Assembly: GCA_964509835.1 (NCBI GenBank) | Contig: CAZDZC010000005.1 | Coordinates: 7,706 to 71,705 of the forward strand | Length of the DNA: 64,000 bases | Reading direction: 5' to 3' | DNA from: an uncultured Acidobacteriota bacterium | GTDB taxonomy: Bacteria > Acidobacteriota > G020349885 > CAZDZC01 | Shown here: piece after piece, positions 60,001-64,000 of the stretch | Layout: every line of letters starts with the position of its first letter | How positions within the stretch are numbered: position 1 is the stretch's first letter | Position numbers: made by a program

Positions 60001-63000
60001 TAAAACCGTTTCTGCCCTTATCATCGCAGAAAATATGGTGCTTCCCTTACTTGGAGGGGGAACGGGATTAATTTTTGTAAAGCTGTTTACTCTTCGCGGA
60101 GACCCTACCGGAGGATTTCTGCCGCTGTTTTATTTGAGCCCGGCAAATATGATTAAAGGCTTCTTTATTACGGTAGCAGTGGGATTGATTTCAATTATTA
60201 TCCCGGCTTTGCTGGTATTAAGACTTAAGGTTGTTGATGCGTTGAGGAGGGTATAAGCGCATGTCAATTCCTTTGATATACAACATCAGAAGCGTAAAAG
60301 TGAGATGGGCATCTTCTGCGGTCGCAGTTCTGGGAATAGCGGGTGTAGTAGCAGTCTTTCTTGCAATGCTTTCAATGTCAAACGGATTCAGGGCAACTAT
60401 GATATCTTCCGGGGAAGACGATAATATAATAATAAGAAGAGGAGGCGCTACCTCAGAACTGGAAAGCGTTTTGATGCTGGATCAGGTTAAAGTTATTTCA
60501 GATGCATCAGGAGTAGCTTCCAGTAGTTACGGACCTCTTGTGAGTCCTGAAGTGGTAGTTGTTGCGGCATTTCATCACAGGAAGTCAGGCTCTGATGCCC
60601 TTGCTCAAGTCAGGGGGGTCTCCCCGATGGCACTTGAAGTGAGGAAAAATGTCAGGATAACTGAAGGAAGGTTTTTTTCAGAAGGTCTTCCGGAGCTGGT
60701 CGTTGGAAGAAATGCGCTGAAGATGTATTCCGGATTTGAACTGGGCAGCAGAGTCAGTTTTGGAGGGACTGAATGGACCGTGACCGGGGTGATGGACTCA
60801 GACGGAAGCGCTTTCGACTCCGAAATATGGTGCGATGCCTCTATTCTATGCCAGACCTACAAGAGACCCGTAAATGTATTTTCAAGCGTAACCGCAAAAA
60901 TAGATTCAATAGAATCTTTTAGCAGAATTAAGGATTCTCTCACAAGCGATCCCAGGCTGACAGTATCAGTAGAAAAGGAGAGAAACTATTATTCAAAACA
61001 ATCCCAAGCTGTCTCCACATTGATAAATGTTTTGGGCTATATGGTGGCGTTTGTCATGGGGATCGGAGCTGTTTTCGGTGCGCTCAATACGATGTATTCG
61101 GCGATAAGCTCAAGAATCACTGAACTTGCAACTTTGAGGGCACTGGGTTTTTCCGGTTTTCAGGTGATGCTTTCAATGATATTTGAATCAATGTTCATTG
61201 CTTTACTTGGGGGAATTACAGGCGTTCTAATAGCGCTTCCTCTGAACGGCTATACTGCATCAACAATTAACTGGCAGACTTTTTCTCAACTTGCGTTTGC
61301 TTTCAGAATAACTCCCTGGTTGATTTTTCAAGGTATTGTCTTCGCTCTTCTTATGGGTTTTATAGGAGGGCTAATTCCTGCAATCAAGGCTGCCAGGCTG
61401 CCGGTCGCATCAGCACTTAGGGAAAAATAAAAAAGGCTGCCCGGAGGCAGCCCTTTATCGGAAGCTAAAACTTCTATGGACAGACAATCAGACCGCACCT
61501 GTCAGAAGAATGCGGCCTCTGGGTGTTGGCGCTGTCGTCTCCCAGTGAACCTTCGCAGAGCTGATTGTTCGCTCCTATCAGATAATAATAGCTGTTGCCG
61601 TCAATCAAAGCTCCCGTGTCGTCAACCAGCATATCTCCCGAGTTATCGCCTTCGCAAATATCCCCGGTGTTCGCTCTGAAATTATGGTCGTAAACACCTG
61701 TCATGATCGAAGCGATTGTTCCTCTGTAAAGATTATAATGCGTTGCATCCGCTGCCGCGCCATGAGCGAGGACAACATCATTTCCTGATTTGGAGGCTGA
61801 AGTAGCAGTTCCCGCGGTATCATCACCGTCCGGTACTTCTCCGACGCCGGGGATGACGCATCCGCTGTCAGCAAAAGGATATGCGGCTGAATCTGTAAAA
61901 CATGTTCCATTTACCGCTCTTACAACATAGTCGTGGCTGTCGCAGTCACCTGGTGTATGCTGATAAGGGCTGATTACTCCCAGGGCTGTTTCAGCGCTGT
62001 CAACCCACAGATCGAAGCTCACAGCACCAGCTCCGCCGCTGAAGGTGATGGTTATTGTGCTTGACGCGAGCGGATTGTCGTCAACAATGCTGTCTATGGT
62101 TACTGTTGGTGTATCGTCCGCATCCTGTCCTGCCACCGCGAGGCTGTCAGCGGTTCCGCAGGTGTTGATTGCGCGGGCGTAGTAGTTATGGCTTGCTGCG
62201 TCAACCGGGGTGTAGAGGATCGGTGAAGCACCGATTCCGGCTACAAGCAGTCCGGTCTCATCATAAAGGTCATGACTTACTGCATCTGTGCCTGCCGTGT
62301 AAGCGATTGTTATTCCGCTTGCAAGACATGCGTCGTTGTCAGTGATGTCAGTTATCACCGGTGCACCCGGTAGCGGATTTACAACAGCTGTATTACTGAA
62401 AATATCCTGTTGAGCGTCATCCTGTGTTACAGTGAGTGTAACTGTATATGTTCCTGCTGTTGCGTAAGTATATATAGGGTTTTGAGCTGTCGATGAGCCT
62501 AGATCACCGAAATCCCAGTCCCATCCTGTGATCGCACATGTCCCGCCTGCAACTGAAGTATCGGTGAAAGATATTCCCACACCATCACATACCGGGGATG
62601 TACTTGTGAATCCCGCCGTCGGTACAGCACATCCGCCTGCTGTAGTACATGGATTATTCACATCTCCGTTAACGATCACATTATCTATTGACCATGTCCA
62701 TTCAAAGTTTGCATTATAGTAATGAAACCTGATCTGAACATCATTATATCCCGCAGCTTCAGTCGTGATATCTATGATCTCACTTGCAGCATTGGCAGTG
62801 GAAGTACCTGTCCAGGATGCAACATTCATCCAGGAACCACCTGTTCCACCCGTTGATCTAATGTCAACATCGGCAACTTCAGCACTATACATCCTGAAAT
62901 AGTGATCAAATGTAAGAAATGCTGTCGATGCAGTGCTCATATCAAATGCCGGTGTAATCAGTTCTTCATCCATATCTACTGAACCTGCACAATCAGAGTC

Positions 63001-64000
63001 AACCTGGGCCCAGTTTCCTGCACATGGAGCAGCTGCATCAGTATTTCCACAACCTCCTGGGTCACCGGAGTTATCGGTATACCAGGTATCAGTAGAAGTA
63101 CCGCCATCAAATATTGTCCATGTTCCTGGAATTCCTGATGCTTCAAAGTCCTCATTGAAGAACTCCTGTGAACCGCTTCCAGGACCAGAGGGAATTCCTG
63201 AATCTTCTAAAGTATTAGGATCTTCAATACTATTTGAGTCATCATATGCATTGACTTTGTAAAAGTAGTCCTCTCCGTCTGTGAGGTTCATAGTATCAGA
63301 ATAATTCAGCCCTGTCACAGTTGTGATCAATGACCAAGGTCCACCTGAATCATCACTCCGATATATATTGTAGTAGATAGTGCCTCCACAATATGTTGTT
63401 GCTGCAATCCATGAAACATTAAGTGTACAGGTGGCGTTTGCCGGATTGATAACAGAGTCAACTCCTGCAAAATCAGGATAACTCTGCCATGTAATATCCA
63501 CTCCTGTTGGATCCCAGGTACTGTCAGGACAAGCCAGTCCGGTCACTTTACAGTTGTAGTTATGAGTTCCTGTTGAATTTGCGGTGTATGTTGATCCTGT
63601 TGCAAACGGAATATCAACACTGTCTTCAGTCCACTGGTATGAGAATGGCCCTGTTCCACCGGTCAGGTCAGCAGAAAGCAGTTGCCCGGTACCGGTACAA
63701 AGCGTCAAAGGTCCGTCAGGTGTCACATTAACAGTGGGATTGTTGGCGCAACCGCTTCCTGTTGTACAGGGATTATTCACAAAACCTGATACGACCACAT
63801 TGTCAACATACCACCACCATTCGTAAATCGCGTTGTGGTAATGCCATCTGATCTGCACATCATTAGCCCCAGCTGCTTCTGTTGTAATGTCTATATTGAT
63901 GTGTGCAACTGAATCTGCTGCCCATGAGCCCACATTAGTCCAACTTCCACCAGTATTTGATGACATTACATCGACTTCACAGAACTCTCCGCCCAGATAG

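Follow-up and report, generated by a model that had tools for sequence, protein, structure and literature searches.

A terminal FN3-fold domain family ending in Cys-Pro, and its divergent member in a partly visible surface-type protein from an uncultured Acidobacteriota bacterium

The subject of this analysis is a minus-strand gene at the 3' edge of a 64,000-nucleotide stretch of DNA (the window; positions 7,706 to 71,705 of contig CAZDZC010000005.1, from an uncultured Acidobacteriota bacterium), and in particular the domain at the C-terminus of its product, which is a divergent copy of a large family of terminal domains that end in Cys-Pro. An earlier reading made from the sequence only (the sequence-only reading) had placed a giant surface protein at 61474-64000, and the gene is indeed there: the only long open reading frame (ORF) of this interval is on the minus strand, with its stop codon at 61474-61476, a frame free of stops to base 63999, and 841 visible codons plus the stop. 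The first ATG lies at 63966, the frame on its 5' side is still open (...YLGGEFCEVDV-M...), and the contig continues beyond the window edge. The gene extends past this edge, and of the larger protein that it encodes only the C-terminal 841 residues are visible; because the gene runs on beyond the edge, the N-terminus and any signal peptide are outside the window. All 71 listed homologues have 1470 or fewer amino acids (aa) and the full-length protein itself is not among them, whereas a search with the RpoD protein of the same window did return its own sequence, which suggests that the full-length protein is longer than ~1500 aa and that the protein index omits larger proteins. The features of the gene and of its 3' flank, with residues numbered from the first visible codon, are as follows.

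61474..63999, minus strand: partial coding sequence (CDS), C-terminal 841 codons and stop; open frame, homologues down to E 1e-85
63775..63999, minus strand: MAM-like/choice-of-anchor-J-like jelly-roll module, copy A, C-terminal ~75 aa only (aa 1-75); 61% identity to the end of copy B, E 1e-29; cut by the window edge
63490..63774, minus strand: Cys-containing Ig-like module (aa 76-170; NPTVNVTPDGPLTLC...YQW...YNCKV); conserved in homologues, no Pfam match
63202..63489, minus strand: FN3-like module 1 (aa 171-266; ..CTLNVSW..YYNIYRS..YFYKVNAYD); conserved in homologues directly after the Ig-like module, no Pfam match
62635..63201, minus strand: MAM-like/choice-of-anchor-J-like jelly-roll module, copy B, complete (aa 267-455); aligns end to end with residues 872-1059 of homologue P0011
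62371..62634, minus strand: PKD domain (aa 456-543); PF18911 and PF00801 at aa 459-533
61861..62370, minus strand: two tandem Ig/FN3-like repeats of ~85 aa each (aa 544-713; ITDITDNDAC..., IDSIVDDNPL...); weak Ig_7 match, E 9.5e-4, below cutoff
61477..61860, minus strand: terminal domain of predicted FN3 fold ending ...RCGLIVCP-COOH (aa 714-841); divergent member of the Cys-Pro-terminal family
63746..63894, minus strand: DNA-level repeat, copy 1; blastn, 71.1% identity over 149 nt to copy 2, E 1.4e-16
62627..62775, minus strand: DNA-level repeat, copy 2; blastn partner of copy 1
61431..61456, minus strand: intrinsic-terminator-like hairpin with T-tract; 11-bp stem, 6 GC pairs, 18 nt 3' of the stop

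The visible 841 residues consist entirely of beta-sandwich modules. The Ig-like module occurs in the same order in nine homologues (P0001, P0004, P0006-P0008, P0011, P0012, P0015 and P0018), the segment that follows it is probably FN3-like, judging by its sequence pattern, and counterparts of the two ~85-aa repeats are present in P0017. Two further points of the sequence-only reading were borne out here, namely the PKD-like domain, with PF18911 at 55.7 bits (cutoff 27) and PF00801 at 30.6 bits (cutoff 23.5), and an internal duplication that has diverged to about 70% at the DNA level, since the two repeat copies (nt 106-254 and nt 1225-1373 of the visible CDS) are 71.1% identical and the modules A and B share 61% protein identity over 80 aa (E 1e-29). 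The hairpin stands between the gene and a convergent FtsX/MacB-like gene, and its position 3' of the stop codon indicates that the C-terminus ...RCGLIVCP is genuine.

That C-terminus had been described as lacking a recognisable sorting signal, and this description holds. The last 128 aa had no Pfam or NCBIfam match when the whole protein and the tail alone were scanned. In particular, the models of the C-terminal domain (CTD) of the type IX secretion system (T9SS), PF18962, PF13585, TIGR04183 and TIGR04131, matched neither the whole protein nor the last 128 aa at E<=1-10, and for signals of the PEP-CTERM, LPXTG or sortase type the end ...TQRPHSSDRCGLIVCP has no hydrophobic run of transmembrane length, no basic tail and no match to a hidden Markov model. 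The known sorting signals were rejected on the same Pfam and NCBIfam scans, which also covered canonical members of the family described below. A search of the literature on tail motifs, choice-of-anchor proteins and sorting domains of Acidobacteria returned nothing relevant.

About 20 of the 71 homologues end in ...C-x(8-11)-C-P. An alignment of the last ~128 aa of 19 sequences (A1) was used for an exhaustive profile search of 1.84 billion cluster representatives, which matched 5,646 proteins with the threshold set to E<=1e-3; of these, 1,500 also passed E<=1e-10 and 76 passed E<=1e-30. Positions and tails were counted in the best 149 matches of this search: 117 of them match the whole profile including the tail, and 32 are repeat proteins that match the FN3 core only, 4-24 times each. 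In 104 of the 117 tail-bearing cases the last residue of the protein is also the last of the match, and a terminal Cys-Pro is found in 96 of the best 149, which is 96 of the 107 domains whose end lies no more than one residue from the C-terminus. The consensus of these 107 members is PpPVPDG...TWD..tC...YNLlYG.L..VsSY...G..C..G..GS..W..VP.GdLWF..VG.DG..TESSWG.dS.G.ERnG..ASG.CG.T.K....TCP-COOH, with four Cys columns conserved at 98-100%, the last two Cys separated by exactly 10 intervening residues in 105/107 and the terminal Pro at 91%. At 40 independently assembled metagenome loci, the stop codon comes right after the terminal Cys and one residue in nearly all complete copies. The Cys-Pro-terminal domains thus form a large family, almost always the last domain of the protein, with four invariant Cys and a Cys-Pro end, and they are absent from the catalogues: no model of Pfam-A (2025) or NCBIfam 20.0 covers the domain, canonical members and domain-only fragments included. 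Stand-alone copies on long contigs (P0357, P0380 and P0381) were considered as possible mini-proteins and set aside, as they look like truncated or frameshifted gene calls.

The proteins that carry the domain are otherwise diverse. Passenger domains of 35 Pfam families were counted among 47 complete carriers, with subtilase, trypsin-like, P-domain, MAM, BNR, FG-GAP, DUF11, Kelch/galactose oxidase, metallophosphoesterase and amidase_3 among the types, and a crude test assigned signal-peptide-like N-termini to 34 of the 47. The source names are sparse, and the named carriers are given only as Acidobacteriota, Thermoanaerobaculia, Immundisolibacter or 'bacterium'. Side-by-side pairs of genes carrying the domain occur at three loci (L012, L020 and L044). 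At the first of these (L012 10001-18517; also L013 and L014), the two domain-bearing genes (1204 aa and 754 aa) lie on either side of two others, which encode a 449-aa protein without a Pfam match and a TPR protein of 378 aa; these two are the sole suggestion of a possible accessory pair, and only one lineage shows them. The tandem cores belong to giant proteins of 1.4-5.2 kaa (P0201-P0210, P0222, P0223 and others) with 6-24 FN3 cores and without the Cys-Pro tail; the ends of several of them (...KKLLIIEK, ...KIMLVK) resemble, by eye, tails of the T9SS type. Since the core recurs in these giants without the tail, the core is a general repeat unit and the tail is the part specific to the family.

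A profile built from the 107 sequences without the window protein matched its residues 717-838 at 29.3 bits (E 3.6e-11), and the protein ends in ...VCP, followed by the stop codon and then by the terminator. The terminal 128 aa are thus a divergent member of the Cys-Pro-terminal family, in which the full canonical set of four Cys, C-x10-C-P, ESSWG and ER is not found and the R of the ER motif is retained; they represent a divergent subtype, like P0027 and P0031. The terminal domain is predicted to adopt an FN3 fold: a profile search of the PDB found the Fn3-like protein 3mpc at E 0.002, and the Fn3 domain of CtXyl5A was the top Foldseek match of the terminal-domain model. Compared with these bacterial extracellular FN3 domains, the Cys-Pro family adds a conserved tail of ~30 residues (ER..SG.CG.T.K....TCP), four invariant Cys and an obligatory terminal position. 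The two members with only two Cys, P0007 and P0014, retain exactly the second and the terminal Cys, which points to a predicted disulfide stapling the tail to the core, most likely C71-C134 in family numbering.

The sequence-only reading had also described the duplicated module as choice-of-anchor-J-like, and of this the homology stands while membership of the model does not. The choice-of-anchor J model NF038128 (cutoff 30 bits) had no match at E<=1 to the 841-aa protein or to module B alone, and PF20773 (InhA-like MAM; gathering score 26.9) had none to the module even at E<=10; the sole Pfam match of module B was PF21471 (Reelin_subrepeat-B), at E 0.046 and 13.9 bits. Module B does align end to end with P0011 872-1059 (29% identity, E 1e-6), and P0011 itself passes the NF038128 cutoff with 44.2 bits over residues 883-1056, as does P0009 with 30.1 bits. 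PF20773 is carried by the homologues P0004, P0006 and P0211, and equivalent modules elsewhere carry PF20773 or PF21471. The module is therefore a homologue of choice-of-anchor J members that does not itself qualify as one: it shares with the NF038128 and PF20773 families its length of ~190 aa, the end-to-end alignment and the differing C-terminal ends among homologues, and differs in that the query modules fall below every model threshold.

These differing ends bear directly on the terminal domain. Alternative C-terminal anchoring or sorting regions, the trait of choice-of-anchor J proteins, were found among the homologues of the MAM-like module, some of which end in a T9SS type A CTD (P0051 and P0064) or in SLH domains (P0043 and P0050) and others in the Cys-Pro-terminal FN3 domain (P0004, P0006-P0009, P0011 and others). 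Because homologues of the module end in a T9SS CTD or in SLH, the Cys-Pro domain occupies the anchor slot. In an Acidobacteriota fragment (P0379), a MAM-like module that closely resembles, by eye, that of the window protein is fused directly to a canonical Cys-Pro domain. The closest relatives of the MAM-like modules in the genome database (42-47% identity; L001 1072-3027, L002 and L003) are in metagenome-assembled genomes labelled as a Methanomassiliicoccales archaeon, Planctomycetota and Cloacimonadales, and none has the Cys-Pro-terminal domain, which suggests either that the passenger module is spread very widely, possibly across domains of life, or that these genomes are mis-binned.

From these observations we infer a sorting or anchoring role for the terminal domain, favoured because its terminal position is obligatory, its passengers are diverse and its slot is held in homologues by T9SS CTDs and SLH domains. 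The protein would be exported by Sec; the terminal FN3 domain would then fold outside the cytoplasm with its tail stapled to the core by a disulfide, and would serve as a common C-terminal handle that directs otherwise unrelated secreted proteins to the cell surface or retains them there, either by docking to a surface partner or because an export or attachment machine recognises it. The MAM-like and PKD modules may be binding or spacer modules. Such a handle would be analogous, not homologous, to T9SS CTDs and dockerins. Dockerin and pre-peptidase C-terminal (PPC) modules are small, stand at the C-terminus of many secreted enzymes and serve in docking or as an aid to secretion and maturation; the Cys-Pro domain resembles them as a small C-terminal module common to many secreted enzymes, and differs in having no homology to them, in its FN3 fold against the EF-hand-like fold of dockerins, and in that no cohesin-like partner was identified. 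Taken as a whole, this explanation, the shared handle included, seems to us on balance probable. The idea of the sequence-only reading that an unrecognised anchoring mode might be in use has gained circumstantial support from a widespread, strictly terminal and uncatalogued Cys-Pro domain, the role itself remaining one of inference. A bolder form of the explanation, which we put forward tentatively and hold to be doubtful, is that the Cys-Pro FN3 domain tags the cargo of a hitherto undescribed sorting or surface-attachment system in Acidobacteriota-like and other diderm environmental bacteria. The dedicated machine or surface receptor of this system would recognise the folded, disulfide-stapled domain or the free Cys-Pro carboxyl end; in each genome, dozens of hydrolases and adhesins, unrelated to one another, would be exported, anchored or processed by it, with the window protein as a divergent cargo.

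Several observations weigh against this explanation. The window protein is an atypical member: it lacks the first invariant Cys, keeping three of the four and having one extra, its last two Cys enclose 4 residues where the family has 10, and it has EGSLG in place of ESSWG. The AlphaFold2 models of the terminal domain reach only moderate confidence (pLDDT 64.7 and 69.4, that is, 65-69), and the disulfide pairing is read from covariation in few sequences. The source of the window is placed tentatively in a deep Acidobacteriota-like lineage by a single marker, RpoD, which has one relative at 84% identity and no other above 63%, with named matches at ~56-58% from Acidobacteriota and Vicinamibacteria. 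No partner gene recurring across unrelated loci was found in five targeted contexts and 40 metagenome loci, and no conserved neighbour emerged from 13 longer loci, a search limited by shadow ORFs in high-GC contigs and by short contigs. The domain could, moreover, be a mere structural cap, in which a disulfide-locked, Pro-ended FN3 guards the ends of long extracellular proteins from carboxypeptidases or unfolding and has no part in sorting or anchoring. The FN3 fold, the tail-less tandem copies of the same core, 4-24 of them, inside giant proteins, the fit of four invariant Cys to two structural disulfides and the neighbourhoods without a partner gene all agree with a cap; a cap has, however, no obvious need for strict conservation (PVPDG, WD..C, ESSWG, ER and C-x10-CP) across proteases, propellers and amidases, and in homologues the corresponding position is taken by genuine anchoring modules, T9SS CTD and SLH. 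We regard the cap as possible and rather unlikely.

A divergent T9SS CTD is a much less probable identity for the domain, and in our judgement a very unlikely one. Like the CTDs of type A (PF18962/TIGR04183) and type B (PF13585/TIGR04131), the Cys-Pro domain is a beta-sandwich of ~100-130 aa that stands strictly as the last domain of a wide variety of unrelated secreted proteins and has several paralogues at a locus, and T9SS type A CTDs are present in homologues of the passenger module; the Cys-Pro domain differs from the T9SS CTDs in that no model matches, FN3 is the closest fold, four Cys are invariant, the end is Cys-Pro-COOH and the taxa are others. That the odd C-terminus is an artefact, in which a frameshift, a premature stop or an assembly error hides a known signal, is hardly credible: the contig is of metagenome type and the tail is shorter than in canonical members of the family, but the terminator hairpin follows the stop, the 43 bp 3' of the gene lead straight into the convergent gene, and ~100 independent homologues end at the same Cys-Pro.

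The remaining alternative concerns origin, as the gene had been said to have a GC content of 50% or more against 38-40% in the rest of the window and to be possibly a recent acquisition. The GC content is raised, at 47.7% against a mean of 41.4% (standard deviation 2.7) in the 45 other ORFs of this one 64 kb window, which served as the background for all comparisons of composition (whole window 41.5%); the size of the excess had been overstated, 50-56% being reached only in the 3' third of the gene. By codon position, the values of the gene and of the background were 0.519 and 0.487 at the first position (GC1; z=0.8), 0.520 and 0.354 at the second (GC2; z=4.1), and 0.391 and 0.400 +/- 0.041 at the third (GC3; z=-0.2). 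The visible protein is very acidic, and its composition is rich in Gly, Thr, Asp and Asn as had been noted (T 11.8%, G 10.7%, D 10.1%, N 6.3%), with Ala also high at 10.1%, S at 8.6%, and K and R at only 0.4% and 1.3%. An excess at the second codon position together with a native GC3 reflects a composition rich in Gly, Ala, Thr and Asp, not foreign codon usage. Recent horizontal transfer of the whole gene is thus not supported, given the background-level GC3, and the core-type genes around it also speak against it; the gene is native, its product a surface or secreted protein of biased composition, and not an obvious recent import.

There is, all the same, a step of GC3 inside the gene, from 0.31-0.40 in the first five modules (aa 1-543; window 62371-63999) to 0.53, 0.44 and 0.51 in the last three (window 61474-62370), the first two of these values being those of the tandem repeats. 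The GC3 of aa 601-841 (0.502) is above that of all 180 windows of the same size from the other 45 ORFs (maximum 0.487). The step could have been left as a scar by recombination or have come with an acquisition at the level of domains, and canonical members of the terminal domain are often on high-GC contigs rich in shadow ORFs. Recent acquisition of the whole gene or at least of its 3' third, or a remodelling through recombination with a relative of higher GC, would account for the local rise of GC, yet seems quite unlikely: the whole-gene GC3 equals the background, the region is a core chromosomal one in which the only integrase-family gene found lies ~24 kb away (36732-37640), and there is no close donor, the best homologue being 41% identical. 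The sample for this comparison is a single 64 kb window.

T9SS CTD, PEP-CTERM and LPXTG signals organise the secretomes of whole phyla, and the recognition of each has led on to the machine dedicated to it. Among the Acidobacteriota and related uncultured lineages, which are abundant degraders, the way in which large extracellular hydrolases are displayed is poorly understood. The Cys-Pro family, with thousands of cluster representatives, a strict terminal position and diverse passengers, could mark a missing display system; at the least it merits a curated model, so that its carriers are no longer annotated as having no sorting signal. The question of how the window protein is anchored now takes the sharper form of a testable statement on a large, uncatalogued family of Cys-Pro-terminated FN3 domains of which a divergent copy is present here, and for the window itself the message is the more modest one of a native, compositionally biased surface or secreted protein.

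The genes around this protein in the window are of core type (mfd, rpoD, dnaG, mutS2, an ABC-F protein, dus, tldD/pmbA and a Xer-type recombinase), together with a HlyD/MacB-type ATP-binding cassette (ABC) exporter with two FtsX permeases, three peptidyl-prolyl isomerases of SurA/PpiC type and a prkA/spoVR cluster. The exporter cluster (57190-61430, plus strand) comprises a HlyD/MacA-like adaptor, a MacB-type ABC ATPase and two paralogous FtsX/MacB_PCD permeases; it is convergent to the surface-type gene and shares the terminator hairpin with it, with no link between the two established. The three SurA/PpiC-type genes are consecutive (38640-41339, minus strand) and directly downstream of mfd (41397-44783), an unusual triple array of genes resembling those of periplasmic chaperones, and the presence of genes of this type suggests a diderm envelope. 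A PrkA-type kinase (11081-13159), a 363-aa ORF (13219-14310) and a SpoVR-like protein (14313-15830), all on the plus strand, are laid out in a manner resembling the conserved prkA-yeaH-spoVR stress cluster.

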